Below, piece by piece: positions 2,014 through 47,070 of a stretch of 64,000 nt of DNA. This DNA comes from a bacterium (GTDB lineage Bacteria > Lindowbacteria > 2-12-FULL-62-27), in the NCBI GenBank assembly GCA_016202645.1, contig JACQOF010000127.1, forward strand, positions 71,714 through 135,713. The letters run 5' to 3'. The notes under the pieces were generated by a model. The model did not search any database. It worked only from the letters and a program-made list of their open reading frames with translations, and was not told the DNA's origin. A program made the position numbers and the translations under genes. Each line of letters opens with the position of its first letter. The stretch's first letter is position 1.

Positions 2014-2014
2014 C

Positions 2015-2477: not shown

Positions 2478-2501
2478 TTCTTCTACATTGCTACATTCAC
2501 C

Positions 2502-5799: not shown

Positions 5800-6461
5800 G
5801 ATATGCGGAGGCCCAGTTCGGCGTCGAGGCGGTCCGTCGCTTCGGCGAGCGAGCGCTCGGCCGACCGGCGCGCCGGCTCCAGGTCTTTTTCCGGAGGCGG
5901 GGCGATCGGCGGCAGAAATTCGACGACCGCGCGGGCGCCGTCCCTGGGAAGAACAAACCGGTCCCAGCTCGGAAAAACGAACGCGCCGGAGACTGACGCA
6001 GTCACCGGCAGGATGGGCACGCCTCCGAGACGCGCGGCGGCGATGGCGCCGCCCTGAAAAACATGGCGGGGTCCGCGGGGGCCGTCCGGGGTGAAGGCCA
6101 CCGGGCGGCCGGTTTTCAGAAGCCGGGCGGCGGAGAGAAGCACCCGCTGGGCGCCGCGCGAGGTGGATCCCCGGAGGAACTCAATGCCCATCTCCGCGAC
6201 GGCCCGGGTGATGAGTTCGCCGTCGGTGTTTTCGGACGCAAGGATGTGATAGCCCCGGTGACGGAAGAAATAGGCCATGATCAACATCCGGGCATGCCAG
6301 AAGGCGAGCACATGCGGGCGGCCCGAGAGCGGCTCCCAATGTTCCTCCCCGCGGATTTCCCACCGCAGGCTCGAACCGATGTGCTCGATCACCCAGGGCC
6401 CGAACGCGCCGCAGATTCCTTGAAGGAGGCGATCTTTCAGACAGAAGTTTCTCCGGTTCAT
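5796..6461 (-). CDS. DUF374-domain protein (lysophospholipid-acyltransferase-like, common in Kdo/lipid A clusters)
   Basis: The AFWHARMLIM...SENTDGELITR...GSTSRGA...FTPDGPRGPRH pattern, directly downstream of msbA. Confidence 0.7.
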   Translation of the reverse strand: MNRRNFCLKDRLLQGICGAFGPWVIEHIGSSLRWEIRGEEHWEPLSGRPHVLAFWHARMLIMAYFFRHRGYHILASENTDGELITRAVAEMGIEFLRGSTSRGAQRVLLSAARLLKTGRPVAFTPDGPRGPRHVFQGGAIAAARLGGVPILPVTASVSGAFVFPSWDRFVLPRDGARAVVEFLPPIAPPPEKDLEPARRSAERSLAEATDRLDAELGLRIS

Positions 6462-8246: not shown

Positions 8247-9433
8247 GCGTGGAGAAACACCCCTGCGGCGGCGGCGGCCACGCGGCCGGCGGCGCCTTTC
8301 GGGCCGAGCTTTGCCGCCGTGTCGGCGAGGAGCGCGCGCATGGCGGATCGGCGGGACTGATCGGACAGGAGCCGCCGGGCTTCGTCGGCAAGCGCCCGTG
8401 GCGTGAAACGGTCCTGGATCAGTTCCGGGACGACCGGAGCGTCCGCGAGGATGTTCGGCATCGCGCAGTATTTCACGTTCACCAGAAGCCGGGCGATCAG
8501 GTAGGACAGGCGCGACAGCCGATAGCCGGCGATCATGGGCGTGCCGAGCAGCATCGTCTCGACGGTCGTCGTGCCGGTCGTGACGAGGGCCAGGTCCGAG
8601 GCCGCCACAAGCGTGTGCCGCTGGCGCTCGTCCGCCAGGAGAAACGCCTTCAAATTCGGGGGAGCGCTCTGCATCCAGTACCGGTAAAATCCGGAAGGGA
8701 TCGTGCGGGCCTGCGCGATCATCACGGCGAGCGGCCGCTCCCGCGCCAGAAGCGACGCCGCCTCCCACATCACCGGAAAATGCCGGGACACTTCCTGGCG
8801 GCGGCTGCCGGGCATGAGAGAGATCAGCGTATCTGTTTCGCCAAGCCCCAGCCGCTTGCGGGCGGCCCCGCGGGATTCGGCCGGGACGACGCGGTCCACG
8901 AAGGGATGGCCGACAAACTCGACCGGACAGCCGGCGGATTCGTAGATGGCGGTCTCGAAGGGAAACAACACAAGCATTTTTTTAATGCGGCGCGCCAGGG
9001 TTTTCGCGCGGCCTTTCCGCCAGGCCCAGACCTGCGGGCTGATGAAAAAAACGACGGGGAGATTGTGTTTCGCCGCAAGCCGCGCGATGTGTAGATTCAG
9101 CCCGGGATAATCGATGAGGAGAAGACCGTCCATTTCGCCGCGCGCCATCATCGCGTCGATCCGGCCGAGGAGTTTCCGGAAGTATCCGAGATTCTTGACC
9201 GCCTCGGAAAACCCGATGACCGCGCGGTCCACGATGTTTTCGATGAGGTCCAGCCCGGCCGCCCGGGAAACCTCCCCCCCCAGCCCGAAAAAAGTGAATT
9301 GCCCGGGGTATTTCTCCGCAAACGCCCGAAGCACCATCTCGGCATGCATCTCGCTCGACAACTCCCCGGACGACACAAATATTCTTTTGACTTTCTCCCT
9401 CTCTCCCTCTCTCCCTTTCTCCCTCTCCATCAT
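8243..9433 (-). CDS. lpxB: lipid-A-disaccharide synthase
   Basis: IFVSSGELSSEMHAEMV (the GE.S.. N-terminal motif), PVVFFISPQVWAWR and VTTGTTTVETMLLGTPM. Start at ATGATG 9433, overlapping the upstream stop (ATGA). The first 17 codons (MMEREKGREGEREKVKR) are encoded by a GA-rich repeat. Confidence 0.85.
   Translation of the reverse strand: MMEREKGREGEREKVKRIFVSSGELSSEMHAEMVLRAFAEKYPGQFTFFGLGGEVSRAAGLDLIENIVDRAVIGFSEAVKNLGYFRKLLGRIDAMMARGEMDGLLLIDYPGLNLHIARLAAKHNLPVVFFISPQVWAWRKGRAKTLARRIKKMLVLFPFETAIYESAGCPVEFVGHPFVDRVVPAESRGAARKRLGLGETDTLISLMPGSRRQEVSRHFPVMWEAASLLARERPLAVMIAQARTIPSGFYRYWMQSAPPNLKAFLLADERQRHTLVAASDLALVTTGTTTVETMLLGTPMIAGYRLSRLSYLIARLLVNVKYCAMPNILADAPVVPELIQDRFTPRALADEARRLLSDQSRRSAMRALLADTAAKLGPKGAAGRVAAAAAGVFLHA
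9391..9428. repeat. polypurine/polypyrimidine GA-rich repeat (GGGAGARAGGGAGA family)
   Basis: ctttctccctctctccctctctccctttctccctctcc. The same family occurs at 50825-50856 and 51007-51041. Confidence 0.8.
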
Positions 9434-19572: not shown

Positions 19573-20468
19573 GAACATCGTCCACTAACCCTTCCCCCCT
19601 TGAGGGGGAAGTTGGATGGGGGGGTTCAGCTGTCTTCAGATACCCTGAACTGACATCCACCAACGACCGCGCGCTGGACCTGGCGCGGAAGGGGGCGCCC
19701 GACCGGTCTATCGTCATCACCCGCCGGCAGACGGCCGGCCGCGGCCGCGGCGCGAACCGGTGGTGGTCGGACCGCCACGCGCTGACGTTCTCGATCATTC
19801 TTCGCCCCCCGCGCATCCATCCGGCGGCGGTGAGCGCGATTTCTTTGGTGACGGGACTGGCGGTCGCAAGAGCCCTCCGGCGGTTAAACCGAAAATGCGC
19901 CGTCGGCGTCAAATGGCCGAACGATCTGTACGCAGGCGGCCGAAAAGTCGGCGGGATTCTGGTGGAAAGCGAAGTCAGGACCGGTCGACCGGCGTTTTTT
20001 GTCGTCGGGATCGGGATCAATCTGAATTCAACCTTTCGCGGCGCGCCACCCGGCATCCGCAAGTCGGCGGTGTCGCTCAGGCAACTGACGGGCGCGCTGT
20101 GGGATTTCGACGAGACGCTGGCCGGAATTTTGCGGAATCTTTTTTCCCGTGTCGACGATTTTTTAAAAAATGGGTTCGATCCGTTTCACCGGGAATGGCG
20201 CCGGCTCGACGTCATCGCTGACGGCTCGCCCGTCAGGTGTCTCGTCGGAGGGCGGCGTATCGAAGGCCGGTACGCGGGCATTTCGCCGACCGGGGAACTG
20301 CGGATCCGGCCGCCGACGGGACCCGTCGAAACTTTTCTTTCCGGAACTCTTCTGATCGGTCAACGACCCCATGACTGTGCTTCCCGGAATATACCACGAT
20401 TTCGGAGAGGGTGGGATTTGAACCCACGGACCCGCGAGGGTCACACGATTTCGAGTCGTGCTCCTTAG
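19569..20468 (+). CDS. birA: biotin--[acetyl-CoA-carboxylase] ligase (group I, no HTH)
   Basis: ELTSTNDRA, GRGRGANRWWS and KWPNDLY motifs. The first two lie upstream of the first canonical start (ATG 19830). The frame is open back through CTG 19569, which overlaps the upstream stop as CTGA. The 3' end overlaps tRNA-Ser on the opposite strand. Confidence 0.8.
   Translation: MRTSSTNPSPLEGEVGWGGSAVFRYPELTSTNDRALDLARKGAPDRSIVITRRQTAGRGRGANRWWSDRHALTFSIILRPPRIHPAAVSAISLVTGLAVARALRRLNRKCAVGVKWPNDLYAGGRKVGGILVESEVRTGRPAFFVVGIGINLNSTFRGAPPGIRKSAVSLRQLTGALWDFDETLAGILRNLFSRVDDFLKNGFDPFHREWRRLDVIADGSPVRCLVGGRRIEGRYAGISPTGELRIRPPTGPVETFLSGTLLIGQRPHDCASRNIPRFRRGWDLNPRTREGHTISSRAP
19590..19630. repeat. 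G/C-tract palindromic element (CCTCCCCCTCAAGGGGGGAGG family), half unit
   Basis: ccttccccccttgagggggaagttggatgggggggttcagc, homologous to halves at 54361-54450 and 60823-60862. Confidence 0.8.
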
Positions 20469-20487
20469 TCCGCTCGGACACCTCTCC
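20403..20487 (-). tRNA. tRNA-Ser (anticodon CGA), class II with long variable arm
   Basis: Folded by hand: acceptor GGAGAGG/CCTCTCC, anticodon stem CACGA/TCGTG with loop CTCGAAA, variable arm TGACCCTCGCGGGTCC, T-arm GTGGG-TTCAAAT-CCCAC, discriminator G. No CCA is encoded. Confidence 0.9.
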
Positions 20488-35231: not shown

Positions 35232-36186
35232 GACCCGAGCAGTCATGAAAAATCTTCGTTTGCCTGAAAAGGCCAAGGTCAACCTGATCGGGGGGTTTCT
35301 CGGATCGGGCAAGACCACGCTTCTTCGGCATTTCCTCTCGCGCCCGAAACTTTCCGAAAAAGTCGCGATCCTCGTCAACGAACTCGGCGCCATCGGCATC
35401 GACGGCCAGACCCTTGCCCGCAGCGGCGGGAACATGGTGGAACTTGCCAACGGATGCATCTGCTGTCAGATCTCGGAGGATCTGGTTTCGACCCTCGTCC
35501 AGATATTCGACACGCAAAAGCCGGACCGGATCCTGATCGAGTCAACGGGCGTGGCCGAGCCCGGCAAGATCCTGAACGTGCTCTATTCGGTCGAGCCGAT
35601 CCTCCGGCGGATGCGCGTTGATCCGACCATCATCGTCGTCGACGCGGGGGCATTCGAGCGGTTTAAGACCGCGCTCGCCTATCACTACGTCATGCAGATC
35701 AAATCCGCGGACGTGATTCTTCTGAACAAAATCGATCTCTCCAAGCCCAAGTCTCTCGCGAAGGTGGAGCGGGCGATCCGGGACCTGAACCCAAAGGCAT
35801 TCCTTCTCAGGACGGACCACTGCCGGGTGGACCTTCTGCGGCTCATCGAAGGAATTCCAGCGCAGACGCCGGCGGGAACCCCGGACGATCACGGCCACGA
35901 GCACACGGACGACGAATTTGAAAGTTTCGCCGTCACCGAAGACACCCCCTACGACCGGGGAAAACTGGAGGCCTTTCTGGCGAAGCTTCCGGACAACGTC
36001 TTCCGCGCAAAGGGCTTCGCGAAAACGCCGCAGGGCCGGCATCTGGTGAATTTCACCGCGGGCGAAGTCGAGTTCGAGGATATCCCGGCGAAAGAATTCC
36101 CGAAGCAGGCAGGGCTGGTGTTCATCGGCCGGCATCTCGACGAAAAGAAGTTGCGCGGGGCCTTGAAGAGATGTAAAGCTGGGTAA
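35227..36186 (+). CDS. COG0523-family GTPase metallochaperone (CobW/YjiA/ZigA-like)
   Basis: P-loop GGFLGSGKTTLL, the hallmark CICCQ (CxCC) motif, NKIDL, and a His/Asp-rich linker PDDHGHEHTDDE. ATG 35245 is an alternative start. Confidence 0.85.
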   Translation: MTTRAVMKNLRLPEKAKVNLIGGFLGSGKTTLLRHFLSRPKLSEKVAILVNELGAIGIDGQTLARSGGNMVELANGCICCQISEDLVSTLVQIFDTQKPDRILIESTGVAEPGKILNVLYSVEPILRRMRVDPTIIVVDAGAFERFKTALAYHYVMQIKSADVILLNKIDLSKPKSLAKVERAIRDLNPKAFLLRTDHCRVDLLRLIEGIPAQTPAGTPDDHGHEHTDDEFESFAVTEDTPYDRGKLEAFLAKLPDNVFRAKGFAKTPQGRHLVNFTAGEVEFEDIPAKEFPKQAGLVFIGRHLDEKKLRGALKRCKAG

Positions 36187-36219
36187 ACTATGCGGGCTCC
36201 CCAAGGAGGCGAATTTTCC

Positions 36220-36909
36220 ATGCTCAAAATCGGCGTCATTCTCAGCGGCTGCGGCGTCATGGACGGATCGGAAATCCACGAGTCGGTCCTGACGATCCTG
36301 GCCATTGACCGCGCCGGCGCGGAGGCGGTCTGTTTTGCGCCGGACAAAAACCAGAAACACGTGATCAACCATCTGACCCAGGCGGAATCCAGGGAAAGCC
36401 GGAATGTTCTGGCCGAATCGGCCCGGATCGCCCGCGGCAAAATTCAGGACCTGCGCAAGGCCACGGCAGACGGCCTCGACGCGGCGATCCTTCCCGGCGG
36501 ATACGGCGCCGCCAAGAACCTCTGTGATTTCGCGTTCAAAGGCCCCGACTGCGAGCTCGATCCGGACGTCCGGCAGATTCTGTCGGACCTGAACGCGGCC
36601 GGCAAGCCCATCGGAGCGATCTGTATTTCTCCGGCGGTCGTCGCGCGGGCGCTTGGATCCAAACATCCGAAACTCACCATCGGAACAGACCCCGGAACCG
36701 CCGGCGCGCTTGAAAAAATGGGCGCGAAGCACCAGGCCGCGCGGGTGGACGAGATTGTCGTGGATGAAGATCTCCGGATCGTCTCGACGCCCGCCTACAT
36801 GCTGGCGGGCCGCATCTCCGAGGCGGCCGCCGGCATCGAAAAGCTCGTGGCGGAAGTCGTGCGGCTGGCCAGGGTTGCCGGGCCGAAAAAAACGCCGGCC
36901 AGAGTGTAG
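36220..36909 (+). CDS. elbB: isoprenoid-biosynthesis glyoxalase ElbB (DJ-1/PfpI superfamily)
   Basis: MLKIGVILSGCGVMDGSEIHESV...LPGGYGAAKNLCDFA...GAICISP. RBS AAGGAGG upstream of ATG 36220. Confidence 0.8.
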   Translation: MLKIGVILSGCGVMDGSEIHESVLTILAIDRAGAEAVCFAPDKNQKHVINHLTQAESRESRNVLAESARIARGKIQDLRKATADGLDAAILPGGYGAAKNLCDFAFKGPDCELDPDVRQILSDLNAAGKPIGAICISPAVVARALGSKHPKLTIGTDPGTAGALEKMGAKHQAARVDEIVVDEDLRIVSTPAYMLAGRISEAAAGIEKLVAEVVRLARVAGPKKTPARV

Positions 36910-36922
36910 CGGCGCCGACGCC

Positions 36923-38077
36923 GTGCTCCACAAGCGCGCCGTTTTTCTCGATCGCGACGGGACCCTGCTGATTCCGCCGGAGGAGTATCTGGCGAAGGCC
37001 GACCAAGTCCGGTTTTATCCGGGCGTCCCGGAGGCGCTGGCGATCCTCAAGTCGAAAGGATTCCGGCGCGTGGTTGTCAGCAACCAGGCGGCCGTTGGCC
37101 GCGGCGTCATCAGTGAAATGAACGTGCTCCCGGTCCACAATCACATGAAGCGTCTCTTGTCGGAACGCGGCGCGGACCTCGACGCGATTTTATATTCGCC
37201 CTATTTCCCGGCCGCCGGCCATCCGGAACACCGCCGAAGACCCCAGGACCGCAAACCCGAACCGGGACTCTTCGAGGAAGCGGCGCGGATGTTTCGTCTG
37301 TCGCTCAAGGACAGTTTTGTCGTCGGCGACAGCCTTGTCGATCTTCAGTCCGCCCGCCGGATCGGCGCGCGCGGCGTGCTGGTCCTGACGGGCAAAGGCC
37401 CCGAGACACAGCGCGAGGCCGCCGCCGCCGGTGTTTCGCCCGATTTTGTCGCGGCGGACGTCCCGGCCGCGGCCGTTTGGATCTGCCGCCAAGTCCTCGA
37501 CCAGCCCCTCGCCGGAAAAAAAATCCTGTTCGTTCTGGCCGGCCGGGATTTTCAGGAAACCGAGTACCTCGTTCCCCGGCTGAATCTGGAGGCGTGGGGC
37601 GCGGAGGTCGATGTGGCCGGGCCCGGTCCTGGGCCGGACGAGTGCGTCGGAGGCGGCGGCCTGCGCGTGAAACCCGACGTCACCCACCAATCCGCCGACG
37701 CGGCGAAGTATGACGCGGTGGTTTTTGTGGGCGGCGGCGGCGCGCGATCCTTGAGCCGATGCGAATATTGTCGGGGCCTTGCGCGGAAGGCCTACGAATC
37801 GAAAAAAGTCGTCGCCGCCATCTGCGTGGCGCCGGCGATCCTCGCGGCCGAAAAACTTCTCTATCGCAAATCCGCCGTCGCATGGCATACTGAACTCTCG
37901 GAACTTCGCAAACAGGGCGCCCGGATTGTCCCGAGGGGCGTTGTGCGGGACGACTTGATCGTGACGGCCGCCGGCCCGCGAGATGCCGAACCCTTCGCAG
38001 ATGCCGTCCGGGCGGCGCTTCAAGGCGAACCGCAAATTGAAATGACGGTCGCGACCCGCGCCGTAAATCCCACGTGA
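36923..38077 (+). CDS. fusion protein: D,D-heptose 1,7-bisphosphate phosphatase (GmhB-type HAD-IIIA) + DJ-1/PfpI domain
   Basis: GTG 36923 start. HAD motifs FLDRDGTL, VVSNQ, RKPEPG and VGDSLVDL in the first ~185 aa. Then KKILFVLAGRDFQETEY...VVFVGGGG...VAAICVAPAIL, a DJ-1 nucleophile elbow. Confidence 0.7.
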   Translation: MLHKRAVFLDRDGTLLIPPEEYLAKADQVRFYPGVPEALAILKSKGFRRVVVSNQAAVGRGVISEMNVLPVHNHMKRLLSERGADLDAILYSPYFPAAGHPEHRRRPQDRKPEPGLFEEAARMFRLSLKDSFVVGDSLVDLQSARRIGARGVLVLTGKGPETQREAAAAGVSPDFVAADVPAAAVWICRQVLDQPLAGKKILFVLAGRDFQETEYLVPRLNLEAWGAEVDVAGPGPGPDECVGGGGLRVKPDVTHQSADAAKYDAVVFVGGGGARSLSRCEYCRGLARKAYESKKVVAAICVAPAILAAEKLLYRKSAVAWHTELSELRKQGARIVPRGVVRDDLIVTAAGPRDAEPFADAVRAALQGEPQIEMTVATRAVNPT

Positions 38078-38086
38078 GGTGACAAC

Positions 38087-38479
38087 ATGCAGGTGCGCAA
38101 ACAGCTTTCGATTTTCTTGAAAAATGAGCCGGGTGTCCTGGCCAAACTTACATCCGATCTCGCCGATCACCAGATCGACATTTTGGGCATGACCGTTTCC
38201 GACACCGTCGACCACGCCGTCGTGCGGCTGATGGCCTCCGACCCGGAAAAGGCCATCGACGTCCTGGAATCGGCGGGCCTCTTGGTGGTCGAGTCGGAAG
38301 TCCTGGTCGTGGACCTCACAAACCGCCGGGGCGCGCTGGAGGACTTCGCGGAGAAGCTGGCGAAGGCGCGTATTAATATAGAGTATGCGTATGGAACAGT
38401 GGGTTCGCGGGAGAAGAGAGGCGTTCTCATTGTGCGGGTTTCGGATACAAAGAAAGCCCTGAAAATTCTTCGTTCCTAG
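38087..38479 (+). CDS. tandem ACT-domain protein
   Basis: LSIFLKNEPGVLAKLTSDLADHQIDILGMTV and VLVVDLTNRRGALEDFAEKLAKARINIEYAY. Confidence 0.75.
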   Translation: MQVRKQLSIFLKNEPGVLAKLTSDLADHQIDILGMTVSDTVDHAVVRLMASDPEKAIDVLESAGLLVVESEVLVVDLTNRRGALEDFAEKLAKARINIEYAYGTVGSREKRGVLIVRVSDTKKALKILRS

Positions 38480-38487
38480 TCTGCGCC

Positions 38488-38543
38488 GTCATTCCCGCGA
38501 AAGCGGGAATCCAGAACTGGTTCCCCGCTTTCGCGGGGATGAC
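38488..38543. repeat. REP doublet with minimal spacer
   Basis: gtcattcccgcgaaagcgggaatccag-aa-ctggttccccgctttcgcggggatgac. The second hairpin carries a compensatory T:A to C:G change. Confidence 0.9.
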
Positions 38544-38615
38544 GGATGTAACGGGACTTAAGGAACACCACACTGGCACAACTGTATACTTATTTCTTGA
38601 TAGAAAATAAAAAAC

Positions 38616-38644
38616 TTGACTCAGATGGCCCTATTGGGGACAAT
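38616..38644 (+). promoter_or_regulatory. candidate sigma70 promoter TTGACT-17 nt-GACAAT with an A/T-rich UP-like tract
   Basis: TTGACT at 38616-38621 and GACAAT at 38639-38644, preceded by tatttcttgatagaaaataaaaaac. About 70 nt upstream of ATG 38719. Confidence 0.4.
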
Positions 38645-38718
38645 ATGTGCAGAACTAAGCTGACAAGGCACGGTTTATCCCGAGGCCGATCAGCCTCATC
38701 CGAAAGGAGGTGGCGCAT

Positions 38719-39006
38719 ATGTCCGGGACGATTCTTCTAGGGCTGGTGTGTTTGGTGATTCCGGTGATTTACAAACACGCGGGACTGGGAGTCCACAAGT
38801 ACATCAAGATCGTCGGCATGGCAGGGTTGTTTTTTCTATTGTCGGCGGTTTTTGGCGACGGCATCTGGATGCATGAGACCTTGGTGAAAATCGGGGTCCT
38901 CTGCCAGATGGGCACGTACTTTCTGGGCTTTCTGGGCTTGCTGATCGGAACACTGATGGGCACGCTTGATGTCATGTTCGACACAGGCGATGTCACCACC
39001 CACTAG
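38719..39006 (+). CDS. small membrane protein (3 TM)
   Basis: ATG 38719 lies 6 nt after AAAGGAGGTG. 95 aa, strongly hydrophobic. Confidence 0.6.
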   Translation: MSGTILLGLVCLVIPVIYKHAGLGVHKYIKIVGMAGLFFLLSAVFGDGIWMHETLVKIGVLCQMGTYFLGFLGLLIGTLMGTLDVMFDTGDVTTH

Positions 39007-39137
39007 GACCGATAACGCCCGGTAGGTGGAGACGAGGGATACTCCCATAACGCGACCCCGCGCGCCATGCATCCCGCGCCGGGGTACCAGGAACGGTCAT
39101 CCGTCGGAAAACGTCGGGGCCGGGCCTCACCCGAGGA

Positions 39138-39174
39138 AAAGGGTTCGCCACAAGAAACGGCGAACCCTTTTTTT
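39138..39174 (+). terminator. intrinsic terminator
   Basis: 12-bp perfect stem AAAGGGTTCGCC/GGCGAACCCTTT, 9-nt loop, T7 run. Confidence 0.8.
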
Positions 39175-39300
39175 GTGACCACAGGACCTGGGAACCTCGG
39201 CGCCCAAGACCGTCGCCACTTGGCGGATACGGCGAACGCCCCTTTCCTCAACGGCGGGCCGGCTTGATTTTTCGATCTCCTGTGAGAGGATGCCTGCCAG

Positions 39301-39696
39301 ATGTGGTGGATCCTCTACTTCTGCGTCTATTTGTCGGTGACGGTTCTCGCCGTGGTTGGGGTGTTCACGCTCCCCCAGTATTCGGCCCTCGCGTTCGGTC
39401 CCTATGAAGTTTTGGGGATATTTCTGAACCTGAGCCTGCTTTTTGCCACGTACGCCTACATTTTCACCCGGGGCATCTTCGAGGCCGGGTTCTGGAAATG
39501 CGCATTCTGGGGCGCAGTGTTTCTGATCATCGTGTGGCTTCTGGAACTGTTTGTACTTCCCCAGTATTACATGGCCATTCTGATGCCGATTCTCCAGACC
39601 CGCATGCCCATCAGCGATTTGGAACGAATCATCTGCCTGATCGTCGGCCTGCCGGCCCTGTACGCCATGTACCGGATGAGCCGAAGCCGCTCGTGA
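39301..39696 (+). CDS. small membrane protein (4 TM)
   Basis: 131 aa, hydrophobic, with an internal LPQY(S/Y) repeat. Converges on the RT gene with a 12-nt gap. Confidence 0.6.
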   Translation: MWWILYFCVYLSVTVLAVVGVFTLPQYSALAFGPYEVLGIFLNLSLLFATYAYIFTRGIFEAGFWKCAFWGAVFLIIVWLLELFVLPQYYMAILMPILQTRMPISDLERIICLIVGLPALYAMYRMSRSRS

Positions 39697-39708
39697 CTCC
39701 TTTTCGCC

Positions 39709-41580
39709 TTACAGGACCCGGGTTCTGGAAGGGAGAAGGGAGGCGGCGGCGTGGCGGGAGGGGGGAGCCAGGTGCGCGGCCAGGCGGGTGGGGGCGTGCA
39801 GGGCGAAGAGTGCGGCGCGGCGCGCGAAGAAGTCGCGTTCGGAGGCGGCGCGGTGCTGGAGGAGAGGGCGGACCCGTGGGTCACGGATCTGGCCGAGGAT
39901 GATGTAGAGGTATTTGCGGACCGCCGGGATTTTTTCGGCGCGGGCGGCGGCGAAGACCGCCGAGGGATTCAGCGTATGATAGCGGTCGATCCGGAGGATC
40001 GCTTCGAGGGATGCCAGCCTGATGAGCAAAGGGAATCCGGGATGAGCGGCGCGCCAGAGCGCGGGGATGGCGCGGATGGCGCCGAGTTCTCCGAGGGCCC
40101 ACGCGGCGCGGACGCGGACGAGGAGCGCGCGCCGGGACATGAGGGCTTCGAGGAACCGGTTCACGGCGTTGGGATCGGAGAGCAAGGCATTGGCCGAGAC
40201 AGACGGTTCGAGCGCCCAGGGGTGGTCGAGGAATTTTTGAAAGAATCCGCTTACCGGGACACAGTCAAACATCGAGAGGCGGATGGCATAAAAGCGAAGC
40301 ATGAAGATCGCGTGTTTGCGGCGGCGGTCGTCGGCGCGGCTGGAGTAGGGAATGCGTTTGGCGGCGGCGCGAAATCCCGCCGTCAGTTTGGCGCGGAGCC
40401 GGCCCACCGCGCGCGCGAAATCCGGATTTTGCCTGAGGAGCGACGCGCCCCAGGATCGGGCCGCCCCGTACGGCGATTCGATGTTCAGCCTCGGAAATCT
40501 CAAATGAAAGAAACCGTCCCAAGCATCCCGCGGCGGGTGCCGGCCACGGAGGCTCAAAAACTGCTGGGCGAGCCAGTCCGTCGAGACAAACAGTCCCGCC
40601 GCGCGGAGGCCCTGCGTGTAAGCGCGAAGGGTCCTGGCGGGGTGCCGCGCGTAGAGACTGAGAAATTCCGGCGGCACGTGGTACAGCGTGCGCGCGATGC
40701 GGTCGAAATCCTCCGAAAGGCCCACCCATGAGGCGGGGCTGTCCGGCCCGTTCAGCGCCGACGCCGACCGGCCGACTTCGGCTTTGCCGTGATGAGTCGG
40801 AAGGCCATAGTGTTCCCAAAGCCGCGCCCGCAGGCGTCTGAAGACGCCGAGAAGTTCCCGGCGGTTCCCGCCGAAGAGGTACATATCATCGACGTACCGG
40901 AAGTATCTGCCCCGGAGATTCCATGCGTTCAGGAGTTCCTCATCGAGAGACGCGAGGTAAACATTGGCAAGGCACCCGGAGATCGTCGGGCCCGCCGCAA
41001 GGTTCGGCCCGTCGGCCCACAGGAGCGACCGGAGGGCCAAAAAGATCGGGTCGCGCGGAAGAATTCCGGCGAGCGCGTCGATGAGTTGTCCCCGGCGGAT
41101 GTGCGGGTAAAATTTCCGGACGTCGGTTTTCACGTAATGCCGGTACCGCCGGCCCGCATCCCGCGCGGCGCCTTCGAACTGCCCCCAGGACGACCGCCAG
41201 TCGAGGAAGAGCCGGTCGGAGGAGTGAACGCCGCCGAGCCGGTTCCCAAACGAGGCGCGGCCGCTTCGGTCCATGCGGCCTTCAAGGACCGGCCGGGCGG
41301 CGAGGGCCAGCGCGACCGCGGCGACTTCATCCCGAAAATTGCGGTAGGCGTAGGGCCGGTTTTCGCCGGATTTTTTCGGCACCGGAAACCGGATGAGCGG
41401 GCCCCAGCGGTACCCGCGTTTCAGGTGGAGCGACAGAAGCCGGAGGTTGTCGAAAAGTCCCCACTCAAACAGCCGGATTTCGAGCGTGTCGTAATACGGC
41501 GATTCCCACTGCCACTGCCGCGCTTTGAGAAAGGCGGCGTAGAGATTGGCGGTGTGGGCGGCCCGGTCTAAAAGGGTCAG
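39709..41580 (-). CDS. reverse transcriptase with C-terminal HEAT/alpha-repeat domain (UG/Abi class-1-like architecture)
   Basis: RT motifs: FPVPKKSGENRP (1), NFRDEVAAV (2), YVKTDVRKFYPHI (A), LAAGPTISGCLANVYLASLD (B), YFRYVDDMYLFG (C) and HHGKAEV (E). C-terminal HEAT-like repeats VRVRAAWALGELGAIRAIPAL and IRDPRVRPLLQH. The track ORF starts at GTG 41382, inside motif 1. I extended it 66 in-frame codons (LTLLDRAAHTANLYAAFLKAR...LKRGYRWGPLIRFP) to CTG 41580. Confidence 0.8.
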   Translation of the reverse strand: MTLLDRAAHTANLYAAFLKARQWQWESPYYDTLEIRLFEWGLFDNLRLLSLHLKRGYRWGPLIRFPVPKKSGENRPYAYRNFRDEVAAVALALAARPVLEGRMDRSGRASFGNRLGGVHSSDRLFLDWRSSWGQFEGAARDAGRRYRHYVKTDVRKFYPHIRRGQLIDALAGILPRDPIFLALRSLLWADGPNLAAGPTISGCLANVYLASLDEELLNAWNLRGRYFRYVDDMYLFGGNRRELLGVFRRLRARLWEHYGLPTHHGKAEVGRSASALNGPDSPASWVGLSEDFDRIARTLYHVPPEFLSLYARHPARTLRAYTQGLRAAGLFVSTDWLAQQFLSLRGRHPPRDAWDGFFHLRFPRLNIESPYGAARSWGASLLRQNPDFARAVGRLRAKLTAGFRAAAKRIPYSSRADDRRRKHAIFMLRFYAIRLSMFDCVPVSGFFQKFLDHPWALEPSVSANALLSDPNAVNRFLEALMSRRALLVRVRAAWALGELGAIRAIPALWRAAHPGFPLLIRLASLEAILRIDRYHTLNPSAVFAAARAEKIPAVRKYLYIILGQIRDPRVRPLLQHRAASERDFFARRAALFALHAPTRLAAHLAPPSRHAAASLLPSRTRVL

Positions 41581-41987
41581 GATTTTTTCTTGGACCGCGG
41601 GCGCACGTCCCGTGCGGCTTTGAGGATGGCGGCGGGGGCGAAAGACTCTTCGAAGTTAAACACGCGCTCGAAATCCGCCGGGGTGTCTTCTTCGGTCTTG
41701 GTCATGAGACCCGCGTCGACAAGCGCGAACACGATGCGGCCGACCGTCTCGGTGTTGTCGACACCCCAAGCCTCAAGGACCTCCTTGGCCATGAGGCCGT
41801 ACTCCCGCGCGGCGAGGTCGCGGACGGCCTCGCAGAGTTCCTTCCCGGTGATGTGCCGGCGCCGCCGGAGCCGCCGGAGGGTGAACTCGAGGGCCGACAG
41901 CACGAACCCCAAGGCGTGGGGCCGCACGGCGCCTTTCAGCGCGTCGTTGGATATTTTTTCCAGCTGTTCGTAGGTGGTGGCTTTCAT
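41577..41987 (-). CDS. conserved hypothetical protein (resembles the PVC-group Minf_1886-type family)
   Basis: 136 aa. HITGKELCEAVRDLAAREYGLMAKEVLEAWGVDNTETVGRIVFALVDAGLM...DFERVF. ATGA overlap with rnhB and CTGA overlap with the RT gene. Confidence 0.55.
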   Translation of the reverse strand: MKATTYEQLEKISNDALKGAVRPHALGFVLSALEFTLRRLRRRRHITGKELCEAVRDLAAREYGLMAKEVLEAWGVDNTETVGRIVFALVDAGLMTKTEEDTPADFERVFNFEESFAPAAILKAARDVRPRSKKKS

Positions 41988-42661
41988 TCCTCGGGCACTA
42001 TATCTCCGGTTCCGGGATGATTCAAGTTGGATTCGGGCGGATCAACTTCATTTTTCAAGTTGGCGACCGTCCGCCACTTGAGCCGAACACAGGCGGGGAG
42101 GCGGTGCAGGGCCAGCCGGCATTTCAGAAGTTCCGCGCGGAGCCACCGTTTGGTGGCGGGGTCGGACGGATAGCCGGACCCGACGTCCCCCATCGCCGGC
42201 CGGAGTTCGTCCATCTGCCGGTCGCGGATGACCTTGGCGACGATCGACGCCGCCGAAACGATCAGGTGGTTCTCGTCGGCCTTCCATTCCGCCAGCACGT
42301 CGACCCCGGGGAATTTTTTTTGAATCCGCGCGGAAAGTTTGGCCGGCGGCAGAAACGCGTCGACGATGATCCGCCCGGGATTTAGTCTGGCCGCGAGCGC
42401 CGTCAGCCGGTCGAATTCAAGTTCGTTGAGGTTCCGCCCGCCGTTGATGTCCGCGGGCGTGACGATTTCATACGCGATCTGAAACCGGCCGGCTAGCCTT
42501 TCGAAAATCCGTTCCCGCGCTTTTCGGGTCAGCGCCTTGGAGTCGCGCACGCCGAGTTCCCGGAAAGGCTCGACGGTGTCGTCCTCGGCCAGGACGGCCC
42601 CCATCACCATCGGCCCGAGAACGGGACCGCGGCCGGCCTCATCGACTCCCATGATCCGCAT
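41984..42661 (-). CDS. rnhB: ribonuclease HII
   Basis: GVDEAGRGPVLGPMV, RDSK, ADENHLIVSAASIVAKV and GSGYPSD. Confidence 0.9.
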   Translation of the reverse strand: MRIMGVDEAGRGPVLGPMVMGAVLAEDDTVEPFRELGVRDSKALTRKARERIFERLAGRFQIAYEIVTPADINGGRNLNELEFDRLTALAARLNPGRIIVDAFLPPAKLSARIQKKFPGVDVLAEWKADENHLIVSAASIVAKVIRDRQMDELRPAMGDVGSGYPSDPATKRWLRAELLKCRLALHRLPACVRLKWRTVANLKNEVDPPESNLNHPGTGDIVPEE

Positions 42662-42675
42662 CCGGGCCGGGCCTC

Positions 42676-42981
42676 CTATTTCGACGCCGCCGGCGTTGGT
42701 TCGCGGATGGACTGGAGGGTCAGTTCCAGCCGGTCCGAGAGGCCCCGGAGGAAATCCTCCATCCGGTCGAGCCGGGTTTCCTGCTTCAGGCGGATCAATT
42801 CCTCCGCGATGTTCAGCCCCGCGAGGACGAGAGTCCGGTCGTTGGAGATCATCCCGAGATGTTCCGAAACGGTTTTGACTTTCCGTTCGAGCAGGACCGC
42901 CGCCGCGCGGACGCGGTCGGGGTTGCCGGAGGTTTCGAAGACGTGTTTTTTTCCGAGGATCATGACTTCAACGGCGGGCAT
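42676..42981 (-). CDS. zapA: cell division protein ZapA
   Basis: ATG 42981. VEVMILGKKHVFE...RVRAAAVLLERKVKTV...DRTLVLAGLNIAEELIRLKQE. Confidence 0.8.
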   Translation of the reverse strand: MPAVEVMILGKKHVFETSGNPDRVRAAAVLLERKVKTVSEHLGMISNDRTLVLAGLNIAEELIRLKQETRLDRMEDFLRGLSDRLELTLQSIREPTPAASK

Positions 42982-43208
42982 CAGGGTTCGTCCGTCAGGA
43001 GACTGAGTCGTTTGAGTGCGGAGTCCACGTGCCGCTGGGAAACGCGGACGCGTCTCTCCAATCCGTCCCGGTGCTCGGACACTTCGGCAAGTTCCGACCG
43101 GAGCCGTTCGGTCTCCCTGCGGAGGACGACATTCTCGCGCGACAATTCCTCCGCACGGCGCAGGACCCTCTCGATCTGGCCTTCCACGCGGCTGATCAAT
43201 TCCTCCAT
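42981..43208 (-). CDS. small coiled-coil protein (ZapB-like)
   Basis: ATG 43208 (GGGGATGGAG upstream), 75 aa of heptad-rich sequence MEELISRVEGQIERVLRRAEELSRENVVLRRETERLRSELAE. Its stop overlaps the zapA start (TGATG). Confidence 0.6.
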   Translation of the reverse strand: MEELISRVEGQIERVLRRAEELSRENVVLRRETERLRSELAEVSEHRDGLERRVRVSQRHVDSALKRLSLLTDEP

Positions 43209-43316
43209 ATCTCCATCCCCCGTGTACCCCACACGCGCGGGCGGCGTCAAGGGGGGCCGGGTCGGAATGCGGCCCCGGGTTGAAATCAATGGATTTTGTG
43301 CTAGGCTTCGAGTCCG

Positions 43317-44642
43317 TTGAAGAAATTTTACATTTTCGACACGAACGTGCTCTTGCACGAACCGACCTCCATGTTTGATTTCGAGGACAACACCGTCGTC
43401 CTGCCGATTGTGGTGATCGAGGAACTCGACACATTCAAAAAGCGCGAGGATCAGGTCGGGCGGAATTCCCGCCAGGTTTCGAATGCCCTGGACGATCTGC
43501 GTCTCCAGGGGAGTCTTTCCGAAGGCGTGGACCTTCCGAGCGGCGGGAAACTTGTGATTGAACTCAAGCACCACGAACTGGCGCCCCTGCCGGAAGGCTT
43601 CGCGCAGGATAAAGCCGACAACCGGATCCTGGCCCTGGCGCTCTACTACAAGCAGAAATCCTCCGAGCCTGTGGTGCTGGTATCAAAGGATCTGAACCTC
43701 CGGATCAAGGCCGACGCGCTGGGGATACCGGCTGAGGATTACGAAAAGAACAAGATCGATCCCGAAGTTCTCTACAAGGGACACCGGGAGCTCAAGGTGA
43801 AGTTCGGCTATGTGGACCAGTTCTACAAAAACGGCGAACTGCCCCTGTCGGAATTCCCGGTCGACCCGACCCTTCTGCCGAACGAATTCGTCATGCTCAC
43901 CGATGAGACGAACCCATCGCACACCGGCCTGGCCCGGGTGAAACGCAAGAAGGACATCATTCAGAAGCTGACGTTCGACAATCCCGTGCTCTGGGGCATC
44001 AAACCCAAAAACCGCGAACAGCGGTTCGGACTCGACATCCTCCTCGACGATGACGTCAAGCTCATCAGCCTCGTGGGCATGGCCGGCACCGGAAAAACCC
44101 TGCTCGCGCTCGCCGCCGGCCTCGAAAAAGTCGTCCGCGAAGAGAAATACCAGAAACTTTTTGTCGTAAAGCCGCTCGTGCCGCTCGGCCGCGATATCGG
44201 TTATCTGCCGGGCGAGGTGGAGGAGAAGCTTCTGCCGCGCATGCAGTCGATCCAGGACAATCTCGATTTCCTCTTCTCGAATGTTTCTCACAGTGACATT
44301 GAAGGTTCCGACCTCGAGGACCTCATGGACGCCGGGATCGTCGACATCCAGGCCCTCACCTACATCCGCGGCCGGAGCATTCCGAACGTCTTCATCATCG
44401 TGGACGAGGCGCAGAATCTGACGATGCACGAGGTCAAGACCATCATCACCCGCGCCGGCCAGGGCACCAAACTCATTTTTACCGGAGACCTCGGCCAGAT
44501 CGACAACCCCTACCTCGACGCGACGTCCAACGGGCTTGCTCTCATGGTCGAACGGATGAAAGGCCAGGGCCTTTACGGACACGTGATGTTTTCCAAAGGG
44601 GAGCGCTCGGAACTTGCGGAATTGGCGGCGCAGATTCTATAG
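43317..44642 (+). CDS. PhoH-like ATPase with N-terminal PIN domain (YlaK-like)
   Basis: FYIFDTNVLLHEP (PIN), Walker A GMAGTGKTLLAL and IIVDEAQNLT. TTG start. Confidence 0.85.
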   Translation: MKKFYIFDTNVLLHEPTSMFDFEDNTVVLPIVVIEELDTFKKREDQVGRNSRQVSNALDDLRLQGSLSEGVDLPSGGKLVIELKHHELAPLPEGFAQDKADNRILALALYYKQKSSEPVVLVSKDLNLRIKADALGIPAEDYEKNKIDPEVLYKGHRELKVKFGYVDQFYKNGELPLSEFPVDPTLLPNEFVMLTDETNPSHTGLARVKRKKDIIQKLTFDNPVLWGIKPKNREQRFGLDILLDDDVKLISLVGMAGTGKTLLALAAGLEKVVREEKYQKLFVVKPLVPLGRDIGYLPGEVEEKLLPRMQSIQDNLDFLFSNVSHSDIEGSDLEDLMDAGIVDIQALTYIRGRSIPNVFIIVDEAQNLTMHEVKTIITRAGQGTKLIFTGDLGQIDNPYLDATSNGLALMVERMKGQGLYGHVMFSKGERSELAELAAQIL

Positions 44643-44645
44643 TTA

Positions 44646-44724
44646 TTCGCTATTAGCTATTGGCTATTTGCCATTGGCCAATTCCGGTTGAGCCAACAGC
44701 TAACAGCCAACAGCCAATGGCGAA
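44646..44724. repeat. imperfect 79-bp palindrome built from GC(T/C)ATTN heptamers
   Basis: Left arm ttcgctattagctattggctatttgccattggccaa. Right arm ttgagccaacagctaacagccaacagccaatggcgaa, which is the reverse-complement homologue and contains the helicase ATG 44717. A single arm recurs at 57360-57395. Confidence 0.8.
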
Positions 44725-46906
44725 CGGCACGCACACGGACCAGCTCAACCCCGCCCAGATCGAGGCGGTGAATCACACCGAGGGGCCGCTCCTGATTTTC
44801 GCCGGGGCCGGCACCGGCAAGACCCGGGTGATCACGCACCGGATCGCGCGCCTGATTTTTGAGATCGGCATTCCCCCCGAGCATATCCTTGCCGTGACCT
44901 TCACCAACAAGGCCGCCGGCGAAATGCGCGACCGGCTTGGCCGGATGTGCGGCGAGGCGGCTGCGAATAATGTTTTTTTCGGGACCTTCCACCGCTTCTG
45001 CGCCTGGATCCTGCGGCGGCATGGCGAGGCGGTCGGAGTCAAACGGCATTTCACCATCTACGACCAGGCAGACAGCCTGCATCTGGTCCGGCAGATTCTC
45101 AAATCGATGGACCGGGCGCAGGAACTCTACCGGCCTGCGGCTATTCTAAGCGTGATCGACCGCGCAAAAAATGGGCGGCGGGGCCCCGCGGACGTGGCGG
45201 CGGGCGCGGACGGCCCGGTGGAGGAGATGGCGGCGAAAATATACGTCGAATACGACCGCCGTCTGCGGGAATCGGACGCGCTTGATTTCACCGACATTCT
45301 GGTCTACGCCGTCAAGATTTTGGAAACGTCCGCGCAGGTTTTGCGCAGCCTTCAGGAGCGGTTCCAGTACATCCACGTCGACGAATACCAGGACACGAAC
45401 GCCGTCCAGTACGCGCTTCTCAAATTTCTTGCCGCGGAACACCGGAACCTCTGCGTCGTCGGCGACGACGACCAGGCCATCTACTCCTGGCGGGGCGCCA
45501 CCATCCGGAACATTTTGTCATTCAAAAAAGATTTCCCGGGCGCCCGGGAGATTTTTCTGCAGGAAAATTACCGCTCGACCCAGGGGATTTTGGATCTGGC
45601 CTACAGCATCATCCGCCACAACCGCGAGCGCGCCGACAAGCGCCTCGTCACCGAGAAGGGCCCGGGCCACGCGCCGCTGGTTTTCGCGGCGGCGGACGGA
45701 TACGACGAAGCGGCGTTTATTTCCCGGCGGATCCTGGAAAATCTGGCGGAGACGCCCTATTCCGAGATGGCGGTGTTTTTCCGGATGGCGGCGCAGTCGC
45801 GGCTCATCGAGGAGGAATTTCTCGCGCGCGGGATTCCCTACGTGGTCGTGAGCGGCGTCGGATTTTACGAGCGCCGGGAGGTGAAGGATCTTCTGGCGTA
45901 TCTGCGAGTGATCGCCAATCCCGCGGACGACGCCGCGTTTCTCAGGATACTCAACGTTCCCAAACGCGGCATCGGCGAGACCTCGGTGGCGGCGCTGGCC
46001 GAACACGCCAAAACGGCGGGCATCCCCGTTTCGGAAACGCTGAACCGGCTGGACGCCCTGCCTGTGTCGGCAGCGCTCCGCCGGCGCCTGTCGGAACTGG
46101 CGGAACTTCTTGCCGCCCTCCGGACCGAGGCGGCGAGGTCCACGCTGGAGGAAGTTCTCCGGCAGATCGTGGCGCGGACGGATTATTTCAATTTCCTGGA
46201 AAAATCCGATCCCGCCGGGTTCGAAGACCGCGCGGCAAACGTCCAGGAGTTGTACACTGTCGCGCAGGAGTTCGCCCGCCGCACGCCGGAAGCCGACGCC
46301 ACCGTACAGATGTTCATCGAGGAAATGTCCCTCCTCACCGACCTCGACCGGATGGACCCCTCCGCCGACCGAGTCTCCCTGATGACCCTGCACGCCGCCA
46401 AGGGCCTCGAGTTTTCGACCGTCTTCATGATCGGCCTTGAGGAGGGAAGCCTCCCTCACGCGTCGAGTTTCGAGTCGGACGCCGAGATGGAGGAGGAACG
46501 CCGCCTCTGCTACGTCGGCATCACGCGCGCCAAGTCGAGATTGTTTCTTTCCCACGCCTTCAGCCGCCGCATTTACGGGGAAACCCGCGACGACATCAGG
46601 CCGTCCCGGTTCCTTGACGAGGCGGGACTGATCGACGCCGGGGACATTTCCTTCATCGACACGCACGGCCGCGGCCGGCGAAACGTGGAGGACGCCAAGC
46701 CGGATCTGATCGAGCGGGTTCCGTTGGACGAGGAGACCGCCGCGTTCGGCGTTGAGCCGGGCGGCCGGGTTCGGCATCCGCTTTTCGGCGAGGGGCTTCT
46801 ACTTCGGATATCCGGCAGAGGCGAGGACGCGATGGCGACCGTTCGATTTGATCGCGCCGGCAAGAAACGGCTGAAACTCGCCTATGCCAAACTCAGCCCC
46901 GCATGA
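44717..46906 (+). CDS. ATP-dependent DNA helicase, UvrD/PcrA family
   Basis: LNPAQIEAV, AGAGTGKT, VDEYQDTN, YRS, and a C-terminal HPLFGEG...V.F Tudor-like tail. Start at ATG 44717. Confidence 0.9.
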   Translation: MANGTHTDQLNPAQIEAVNHTEGPLLIFAGAGTGKTRVITHRIARLIFEIGIPPEHILAVTFTNKAAGEMRDRLGRMCGEAAANNVFFGTFHRFCAWILRRHGEAVGVKRHFTIYDQADSLHLVRQILKSMDRAQELYRPAAILSVIDRAKNGRRGPADVAAGADGPVEEMAAKIYVEYDRRLRESDALDFTDILVYAVKILETSAQVLRSLQERFQYIHVDEYQDTNAVQYALLKFLAAEHRNLCVVGDDDQAIYSWRGATIRNILSFKKDFPGAREIFLQENYRSTQGILDLAYSIIRHNRERADKRLVTEKGPGHAPLVFAAADGYDEAAFISRRILENLAETPYSEMAVFFRMAAQSRLIEEEFLARGIPYVVVSGVGFYERREVKDLLAYLRVIANPADDAAFLRILNVPKRGIGETSVAALAEHAKTAGIPVSETLNRLDALPVSAALRRRLSELAELLAALRTEAARSTLEEVLRQIVARTDYFNFLEKSDPAGFEDRAANVQELYTVAQEFARRTPEADATVQMFIEEMSLLTDLDRMDPSADRVSLMTLHAAKGLEFSTVFMIGLEEGSLPHASSFESDAEMEEERRLCYVGITRAKSRLFLSHAFSRRIYGETRDDIRPSRFLDEAGLIDAGDISFIDTHGRGRRNVEDAKPDLIERVPLDEETAAFGVEPGGRVRHPLFGEGLLLRISGRGEDAMATVRFDRAGKKRLKLAYAKLSPA

Positions 46907-47070
46907 AGTCTTTCGGGTATTTCCTCCAGGTCATCGCCCTCATTCTTCTGCCGTCGGTTTTCGTCTGGGCCCTCATGGGAAAAATCGGCGCGCGGACCGA
47001 GCTCTCCATGCTGGCCGCGGGCGCGATCCTTTTTTACGCGGGGAATTTGTGTTCGAAGCGCAAGAGTTGA
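46903..47070 (+). CDS. 55-aa two-TM membrane protein (below the ORF-track size cutoff)
   Basis: My translation: MKSFGYFLQVIALILLPSVFVWALMGKIGARTELSMLAAGAILFYAGNLCSKRKS. Its ATG overlaps the helicase stop (ATGA), and it ends 4 nt before bioB. Confidence 0.5.
   Translation: MKSFGYFLQVIALILLPSVFVWALMGKIGARTELSMLAAGAILFYAGNLCSKRKS

Follow-up and report, generated by a model that had tools for sequence, protein, structure and literature searches.

The window analysed here, a stretch of 64,000 nucleotides from contig JACQOF010000127.1, contains on its minus strand a gene for a protein with a reverse transcriptase (RT) domain and, after it, a C-terminal domain of alpha-helical repeats (alphaRep). 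The product is an intact RT, placed in the class 1 UG/Abi type by its similarity to hidden Markov models. Among Candidatus Lindowbacteria-like bacteria, the gene is apparently fixed, passed on vertically and present in a single copy, and it does not appear to be a mobile or island gene. In the best explanation, to which we give somewhat better than even credence, this is a vertically inherited stand-alone class 1 RT that would be produced at a low level by termination-reinitiation, probably makes untemplated, protein-primed DNA and, as we lean to think, plays a core role in its lineage.

The family to which the window protein belongs consists of 15 proteins, which form two clusters at 50% identity among 1.84 billion representative sequences. 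The 14 homologues are 35-69% identical to the window protein, and more than 100 alignment columns, including those of all catalytic residues, are invariant across two clades. Clade A comprises ten distinct loci (the window, L001, L002, L003, L037, L038, L043, L124, L125 and L126) with RTs that are 60-87% identical in pairwise comparisons, and includes two metagenome-assembled genomes (MAGs) named Candidatus Lindowbacteria. Clade B comprises five loci (L004, L005, L039, L127 and L128), whose RTs are 39-41% identical to the window RT and about 61% identical among themselves. A scan of metagenomes yielded merely duplicates or partial copies of known loci.

The RT gene and its parts are located as follows.

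39709-41580, minus strand: RT-alphaRep gene of 623 codons and a stop codon, with the start codon CTG at 41578-41580.
40741-41580, minus strand: RT fingers and palm, residues 1-280, recognised by the PADLOC models UG35, UG21, UG25 and UG19 and by Foldseek.
41197-41274, minus strand: highly conserved loop (residues 103-128, MDRSGRASFGNRLGGVHSSDRLFLDW) that precedes motif A, a candidate priming loop.
41122-41124, minus strand: catalytic aspartate D153 of motif A (KTDVR, 41116-41130), invariant in the alignment.
40885-40896, minus strand: catalytic YVDD, residues 229-232, invariant in 15 of 15 sequences.
40261-40740, minus strand: helical middle region, residues 281-440, with helices at 282-435 in the AlphaFold2 model; homologous to its counterpart in UG35 and UG25.
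39796-40260, minus strand: C-terminal alphaRep/HEAT-like domain, residues ~441-595, recognised by HEAT_2, by alphaRep proteins of the PDB and as paired helices in the AlphaFold2 model, with a predicted local distance difference test score (pLDDT) above 90.

A preliminary description of this DNA had proposed a 623-codon RT frame with the catalytic YVDD and the motifs FPVPKKSGENRP, NFRDEV, YVKTDVRKFYPHI, LAAGPTISGCLANVYLASLD, YFRYVDDMYLFG, VRVRAAWALGELGAIRAIPAL and IRDPRVRPLLQH. Indeed, all these motifs lie in the open minus-strand frame 39709-41580, and the frame is confirmed by translation, by the alignment of the 14 homologues and by the best PADLOC model, RT_UG35 (1.2e-36). With both D153 and YVDD invariant, the palm is predicted to be catalytically intact. 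The Pfam RVT_1 domain is found at 27 bits, slightly below the cut-off of 29.6. The C-terminus had been described as HEAT-like; it matches Pfam HEAT_2 (1.9e-10), its 160 residues match alphaRep proteins from the PDB down to 9e-34, and the AlphaFold2 model folds it into helices. This model, built from the 15-sequence alignment, has a pLDDT of 85.6 and a predicted template modelling score (pTM) of 0.87.

The architecture of RT plus alphaRep defines the class 1 UG/Abi RTs (PMC9226505), and the assignment of the window RT to this architecture, already suggested in the preliminary description, agrees with the PADLOC profiles and with structure comparison. The RT_UG35 match covers residues 9-460 of the protein and positions 325-770 of the 938 in the profile. 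The following models are UG21, UG25 and UG19, and these models are at the top for all 15 family members, which by profile similarity thus group with UG/Abi RTs and not with those of retrons, group II introns, diversity-generating retroelements or CRISPR systems. At whole length, Foldseek gives template modelling scores normalised to the query (TMq) of 0.43 for AbiK, 0.41 for UG15/DRT4 and 0.39 for DRT6 (DRT, defence-associated reverse transcriptase), with AbiA also in the range of 0.39-0.43.

UG25 and UG35 are methylase-RT-alphaRep fusions of unknown function, for which the prediction of defence was "inconclusive" (PMC9226505). The family described here is similar to them, as its profile positions 3-613 align to their residues ~290-900, that is, to the RT, the middle region and the alphaRep domain. 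However, it lacks the N-terminal methyltransferase, and the match begins at profile position ~325 of 938; nor does the gene upstream of the window RT, which is of the Minf_1886 family, encode a methylase. In an exhaustive profile search of the 1.84 billion representatives, the two family representatives score 998 and 1052 bits, and the next matches at most 263 bits. The latter are mostly proteins of 900-1000 amino acids with the RT beginning at residue ~300-360. Ten sampled nearest non-family matches have 279-659 bits on the better of the UG25 and UG35 models, whereas the family scores 84-124 bits on these models (for the window protein, 124 bits with UG35 and 84 bits with UG25, PADLOC cut-offs not being applied). 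The gap in profile scores and the long neighbours of the UG25/UG35 type indicate that the window RT is a divergent, methylase-less sister, belonging to neither group as defined. Further differences from UG25 and UG35 are the lack of a conserved partner gene, UvrD-like in UG35 and DUF1848 in UG25, and a context that is housekeeping, syntenic and lineage-fixed.

Two genes were considered as possible counterparts of the missing UG25/UG35 components. One encodes a PcrA/UvrD-like helicase on the opposite strand 3 kb from the RT (44660-46906, plus strand), with RTasHel as its best PADLOC match (1.8e-124) and a full-length PcrA match of 766 bits. It was rejected as a UG35-type partner, as it is a full-length PcrA/UvrD homologue and no such gene is found near the RT in relatives. 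Probably this is a housekeeping helicase, and its proximity to the RT is coincidental. The other is found in L038 at 7219-8808, 3.6 kb downstream of the RT, and encodes a 529-aa protein with HEAT_2 and UPF0020/MTS methyltransferase domains. It was rejected as a split UG25/UG35 methylase, since it is seen in L038 alone, with a homologue in neither the window nor the other loci.

The RT domain taken separately is closest in Foldseek to the RTs of group II introns, G2L4 and diversity-generating retroelements (DGRs), with E-values of ~1e-9 and template modelling scores normalised to the target (TMt) of 0.55-0.71; the top match is the G2L4 structure 9d4s (1.2e-9). This likeness, seen in both fold and sequence, is what could speak for a retron, group II intron or DGR enzyme, an identity to which we give practically no credence. 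The NCBIfam retron model NF038233 gives 35.5 bits against a cut-off of 235, and the group II model TIGR04416 (group_II_RT_mat) gives 49.3 against 300, matching the RT domain only. The C-terminal half of the protein is alphaRep, and no maturase (X) or endonuclease domain was found in it by Pfam or in the AlphaFold2 model. Rfam, applied to the whole window with the gathering threshold and to 38400-43700 with an E-value threshold, produced only sub-threshold noise for non-coding RNA (ncRNA), including intron RNA. A search for a template repeat and variable repeat pair over 36000-47000 found only 30-32-nt repeats of chance level at 72-80% identity. Thus the reported lack of an endonuclease, a maturase domain and such a repeat pair is reproduced. 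The gene junctions are overlapping or very short in both clades and leave no room for a dedicated adjacent ncRNA; at the other end, the RT stop codon is 12 nt from a convergent membrane-protein gene (39301-39696), so that the earlier statement that there is no space for msr-msd or another ncRNA also stands. Taken together, the model scores, the missing RNA and repeats and the alphaRep C-terminus effectively refute a retroelement identity.

Upstream of the RT, the window contains a string of genes and signals on the same strand.

41577-41580, minus strand: CTGA junction, in which the start codon CTG of the RT gene overlaps the stop codon TGA of the Minf_1886-family gene; proposed site of termination-reinitiation.
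41577-41987, minus strand: gene of a 136-aa protein that the model TIGR04138 (111 bits, cut-off 60; 3.6e-32) assigns to the Minf_1886 family.
41984-42661, minus strand: rnhB, encoding RNase HII (TIGR00729, 1e-54, 185.7 bits against 123.3; Pfam RNase_HII, 1.6e-43), with an ATGA overlap with the Minf_1886-family gene.
42676-42981, minus strand: zapA (Pfam ZapA, 2.8e-12, 47.2 bits against 23.8), separated from rnhB by a 14-nt gap.
42981-43208, minus strand: gene of a 75-aa coiled-coil protein, first of the string, with a TGATG overlap with zapA; its label "zapB-like" is unverified.
41997-42025, minus strand: sigma-70-like promoter match TTGAAT-17-TATAGT in the 3'-terminal part of rnhB, with 10 nt from its end to the ATG of the Minf_1886-family gene; a consensus match only.

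The order of the five genes and the TGATG, 14-nt, ATGA and CTGA junctions are read directly from the DNA as had been described. The name zapB-like fares worse: the 75-aa protein has 14.6 bits with Pfam ZapB, below the cut-off of 31.5, and the name is backed by the coiled coil and the position alone. Genes for proteins of 71-75 aa are found upstream of zapA also in L001, L002, L003, L037, L038, L043 and L125. In L124, the most divergent clade A locus, the usual place of zapA upstream of rnhB is taken by a gene (580-864) for a small membrane protein, 62% identical to the product of a window gene located past the RT and on the opposite strand (38710-39006).

The gene of the Minf_1886 family is directly 5' of the RT gene in all ten clade A loci, four of which were reached via the Minf_1886 protein and not via the RT. 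The rnhB gene is directly upstream of this pair in eight of the ten. In L001, about 8 kb of polysaccharide and lipopolysaccharide (LPS) genes (L001/L041 ~1240-9280; LPG synthase, formyltransferase, deacetylase, epimerases, glycosyltransferase) are inserted between rnhB and the pair, and in L002 the two are 3.3 kb apart (L002/L042 4945-8283), with genes for a 660-aa TPR protein and a MotA/ExbB-FliL protein between them. Neither insert contains defence genes. Thus the tight partner of the RT in clade A is the Minf_1886-family gene, not rnhB, and together they form a two-gene unit. The proposal that the RT is hard-wired into a zapB-zapA-rnhB operon holds in part: the adjacency to rnhB is real in most clade A loci, but it is broken in L001 and L002, and in clade B rnhB is absent from the DNA examined.

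One possibility, raised on account of this adjacency, is a module making complementary DNA (cDNA), in which the 136-aa protein takes part, the RT would copy RNA and RNase HII would strip the RNA of the hybrid. RNase H activity belongs to several retroelement cycles, and in the eight loci with adjacent rnhB the junctions are overlapping or short. However, unrelated genes part rnhB from the pair in L001 and L002, rnhB is a near-universal housekeeping gene, Rfam revealed no locus for a template RNA, and the class 1 relatives use no RNA templates. The module is thus decidedly unlikely, and the suggested functional link between the RT and RNase HII is weak, as the adjacency is limited to eight of ten loci in one clade, is broken twice there and is not seen in the sister clade. 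The RNase HII of the window itself passes the TIGR00729 cut-off alone, the other listed RNase HII models (of the PRK00015 type and others) being well under their cut-offs; its subtype may therefore be unusual among bacteria.

The Minf_1886-family protein has an all-alpha AlphaFold2 model (pLDDT 87). The best E-value of this model against the PDB is 1.8, which means no fold match, and hence the fold gives no functional lead. A member of the family occurs outside the lineage on a 2.45-Mb contig (L040, 6025-8411), after holB (DNA polymerase III delta') and a gene with a PSP1 domain, with no RT nearby. We take this order, holB-PSP1-Minf_1886, to recall holB-yaaT-yabA of Bacillus. The existence of a homologue at an RT-free locus indicates that the Minf_1886 family has a function independent of the RT.

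The promoter-like match at 41997-42025 is one of three in the region, where 0.7 are expected. It could supply the Minf_1886-RT pair with a nearly leaderless transcript of its own.

In clade B the context is different. The genes form the block gap-pgk-tpi-gpmI-YkuD-OmpA-OEP-(CxxCxxCC)-(queE, on the opposite strand)-RT-NTP_transferase (glmU-like)-prs, none of which, apart from the RT, occurs in the window. In L005 (11923) and L127 (9839-9842), the stop codon of the RT gene overlaps the start of the NTP_transferase gene, and prs is next. Thus in clade B a housekeeping operon begins with the RT gene, which in clade A comes last. Neither rnhB nor the Minf_1886-family gene was found near it in the stretches examined (at most 10 kb), and therefore the enzyme seems to need no adjacent partner gene. 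No neighbour gene is common to the two clades, and the RT thus looks like a self-sufficient unit.

The start of the RT gene requires a correction of the existing annotation. The program-made list of open reading frames gives only 557 aa, starting from GTG at 41382, because in-frame ATG, GTG and TTG codons are missing further upstream. The public annotation, HY522_10585 on a MAG contig of 181 kb, has the same 557 aa and is N-terminally truncated, as this GTG is the valine codon of FPVPKK, inside RT motif 1. The 14 homologues, found among 5.8 billion proteins, align from an N-terminal methionine ("M-TLLDRAA...") that corresponds exactly to the CTG at 41578-41580; among them, P0002, P0005 and P0009-P0013 have the initiator methionine aligned to this codon. 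The 66 N-terminal residues that are lost with the GTG start are conserved in both clades (AFLKAR.W.WE.PYYD) and form helices with pLDDT of 84-93. The alignment of the homologues' methionine to the CTG demonstrates that the 623-codon model and the CTGA junction are correct.

The CTGA overlap is found in seven of the ten clade A loci (the window, L002, L003, L038, L043, L124 and L125). In L001 the start codon is ATA, overlapping TAA (ATAA), which brings the number of loci with a non-AUG start overlapping the Minf_1886 stop to eight. In the remaining L037 and L126, the RT gene starts with ATG after spacers of 44 and 15 nt, respectively. The frames of L002 and L043 contain a stop codon 3-6 codons upstream of the CTG, and hence only non-canonical codons are possible as starts there. 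In five genomes (the window, L001, L002, L038 and that of protein P0006), gene callers shorten the RT by 47-102 residues to 521-576 aa, because it really begins at a CTG or ATA that overlaps the stop codon before it.

Two other readings of this junction were considered. Firstly, the Minf_1886 protein and the RT might be fused, either by a -1 ribosomal frameshift close to the stop codon or by slippage of transcription there. In the window, the RT frame is indeed -1 relative to that of the Minf_1886-family gene, and one extra A in the A6 run just before the CTG (41581-41586, minus strand) would fuse the frames; eight of the ten loci lack a canonical start, and three have a weak UGA-C stop context. 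However, no slippery heptamer is common to the other loci, in L002 and L043 a stop codon shuts the RT frame upstream, and the fusion is at odds with the ATG-started genes of L037 and L126 and with the clade B proteins, which have methionine at the aligned position. A fusion is thus highly unlikely, and frameshifting or slippage as a general mechanism was rejected. The A6 run occurs in the window alone and is probably incidental, although a homopolymer sequencing error or slippage is possible at this site. Secondly, the RT gene might be decaying or untranslated in the window genome, having lost its ATG, as might be suggested by the lack of ATG, GTG and TTG before motif 1 and by the RVT_1 score just under the gathering threshold. 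This is very improbable indeed: the frame of 623 codons is intact, the non-AUG overlap is kept in eight genomes at 60-87% protein identity, and the invariant columns shared by the clades include all catalytic residues.

Overlaps of stop and start codons of the ATGA and TGATG type are associated with translational coupling, and near-cognate start codons, such as AUU of infC, provide low, regulated expression. The junction described here is similar to the former, as the upstream stop overlaps the downstream start. Unlike both precedents, it has CTG or ATA on an RT gene, apparently kept in eight diverged genomes. Ribosomes that finish the Minf_1886-family gene would reinitiate at the overlapping near-cognate CTG or ATA, and the dose of the RT would be low and tied to translation of the Minf_1886 protein. 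Since a canonical start is absent in most genomes and the start overlaps the upstream stop, the RT is most likely made in small amounts by reinitiation, at a CUG in the window.

DRT4, AbiK, Abi-P2 and AbiA perform template-independent synthesis of single-stranded DNA (ssDNA), primed by a tyrosine of the enzyme's own, and have alphaRep in place of the thumb (PMC12783706); these four are the class 1 enzymes with known biochemistry. The window RT resembles them in the succession of RT fingers and palm by alphaRep where a recognisable thumb would otherwise be, in being encoded by a stand-alone gene with no ncRNA, and in whole-length structure, with TMq in the range given above. However, at the sequence level the likeness to DRT4 and AbiA is confined to the palm (13 bits with NCBIfam Drt4, 15 bits with AbiA), and the RT is far under the cut-offs of the NCBIfam models Drt2, Drt3a, Drt4 and AbiA. 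Another difference is that the genes of DRT4, AbiK, Abi-P2 and AbiA are accessory defence genes borne by plasmids, prophages or islands.

The architecture, the lack of an ncRNA locus and the analogy with AbiK, Abi-P2, AbiA and DRT4 suggest that the window RT probably performs protein-primed, untemplated DNA synthesis as well. It would then make ssDNA at a low constitutive level. The loop at residues 103-128, with S110 and S121, might serve as the priming loop. Its invariant columns are M103, G107, S110, G112, N113, R114, L115, S121, D122, L124 and W128, and its pLDDT, 73-78, is lower than elsewhere in the model. This candidate is a speculation based on a rough positional analogy with Tyr125 of DRT4, and the window RT has no demonstrated equivalent of the priming tyrosine.

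The composition of the RT gene is native: its GC content, GC at third codon positions (GC3, 0.79) and codon usage (r = 0.86 against other genes) are like those of the neighbours, as the preliminary description had judged by eye. In pairs of clade A loci, the identity of RTs correlates with the identity of RNase HII (Pearson 0.78), Minf_1886 proteins (0.66) and ZapA (0.64); the pairs are not independent, and the p-values are thus indicative only. For instance, between the window and L001 the identity is 68% for the RT, 64% for RNase HII, 74% for Minf_1886 and 59% for ZapA. In clade B, the RTs are 61% identical and the neighbours 46-82%. The RT is retained at conserved positions in all loci of both clades (ten of ten and five of five), although RNase HII is only 47-66% identical. 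A single RT locus was found in each of the five species-representative genomes that carry the RT. The suspicion of a recent passenger is dispelled, as all the relatives examined have the RT, which diverges together with its neighbours, and the combination of relatives lacking it at this position with flanking insertion scars was not observed.

The plasmid search gave no match to the RT, and the best matches in IMG/VR are other RTs that across the RT core are at most ~30% identical, apart from short segments with up to 40%. No defence genes were found among the neighbours of the RT in the 15 loci; the context is housekeeping, and PADLOC gives only generic PcrA/UvrD helicase and PhoH2-like matches. 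The island or mobile location and patchy distribution that are typical of DRTs are thus not seen in the loci examined.

These observations bear on the possibility that the RT is a single-gene abortive-infection system, a new DRT type similar to DRT4 and AbiK, that has simply not moved within a small lineage from which few genomes are sampled; a low level of ssDNA would become toxic once a phage factor stabilises the product. This is possible, though we do not consider it probable. All class 1 UG/Abi RTs that have been characterised are anti-phage genes (PMC9226505; PMC12783706), a weak non-AUG start would suit a potentially toxic effector, and the "inconclusive" defence prediction for UG25 and UG35 is not a negative one. 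Moreover, the RT borders a variable region, with differing downstream genes and insertions at the junction of rnhB and the Minf_1886-family gene. On the other hand, conserved positions across both clades, co-divergence with housekeeping neighbours, no nearby defence genes, no plasmid or viral copies and the lack of a patchy island pattern all argue against it. Because of the fixation, synteny, co-divergence, non-island context and lack of mobile copies, we lean slightly towards a lineage-core role, related to DNA damage and stress or to the cell cycle, rather than classical accessory anti-phage defence.

A more specific version of the core role, which we advance only tentatively, is that of a domesticated RT with a phage-independent function, for example in replication, in the cell cycle or in tolerance of damaged DNA, and with a dosage hard-wired to the Minf_1886 protein by CUG reinitiation. 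There are precedents for a non-defence role of a chromosomal RT without a retroelement, namely G2L4, involved in DNA repair, and the PrimPol-RT of E. coli (PPRT, DRT7/UG10-type; class 1-type), which is reported to contribute both to defence and to a response to oxidative DNA damage (PMC12439943). However, G2L4 lacks alphaRep and has a thumb of the group II type, a PrimPol domain is part of PPRT, and neither is known to be syntenic, lineage-fixed or coupled via a non-AUG start.

Several points weigh against the explanation that we prefer, that of a stand-alone class 1 RT with a lineage-core role. Given that every characterised relative in the class is an anti-phage gene, a non-defence role would be an exception. 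The downstream neighbours of the RT differ in every clade A genome, and the rnhB|Minf_1886 junction has accepted insertions, as happens beside accessory genes. All loci come from MAGs or metagenome contigs, several of which are short. The relatives of the AbiK, Abi-P2, AbiA and DRT4 type share less than 15% identity with the window RT outside the RT core, and the enzymes closest to its RT domain in sequence and fold, those of group II introns and DGRs, are templated. Finally, CUG reinitiation is a reading of the nucleotide sequence only.

Other features near the string are as follows. A gene for a PhoH2-type protein (43317-44642, plus strand; its best match, the model for the RNA 5'-3' helicase PhoH2, has 311 bits where the cut-off is 680) is divergent from the coiled-coil gene and zapA, and the helicase gene begins 17 nt after it. 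The sole Rfam match at the gathering level in the 64-kb window is one tRNA (20403-20487, minus strand).

A class 1 UG/Abi RT as such is a known kind of enzyme, and automatic annotation would call the gene a UG35-like DRT. New, by contrast, are the small methylase-less sister group of UG25 and UG35, the core-gene behaviour of an RT in two housekeeping contexts of Lindowbacteria-like genomes, and the conserved CTG or ATA start overlapping the stop codon of a Minf_1886-family gene. A literature search found no mention of TIGR04138 or of a Lindowbacteria RT and nothing on the sister group, the core behaviour or such a start.

To our knowledge, bacterial RTs outside retroelements have so far almost all been anti-phage genes moving between defence islands. 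The RT described here has the class 1 architecture and yet behaves as a core gene: it is retained at the same position across housekeeping proteins that are ~50-65% identical, with native codons and no mobile copies. It is thus a concrete candidate either for an RT domesticated to serve the cell or for immunity that has become fixed. As a methylase-less sister of UG25 and UG35, both without a known function, it is a minimal testable module. The conserved overlap of CTG or ATA with the upstream stop codon appears to be a clean natural case of non-AUG translational coupling. If the RT is indeed a domesticated core enzyme, it would be the first among the class 1 UG/Abi RTs whose main role is in housekeeping and not in defence.

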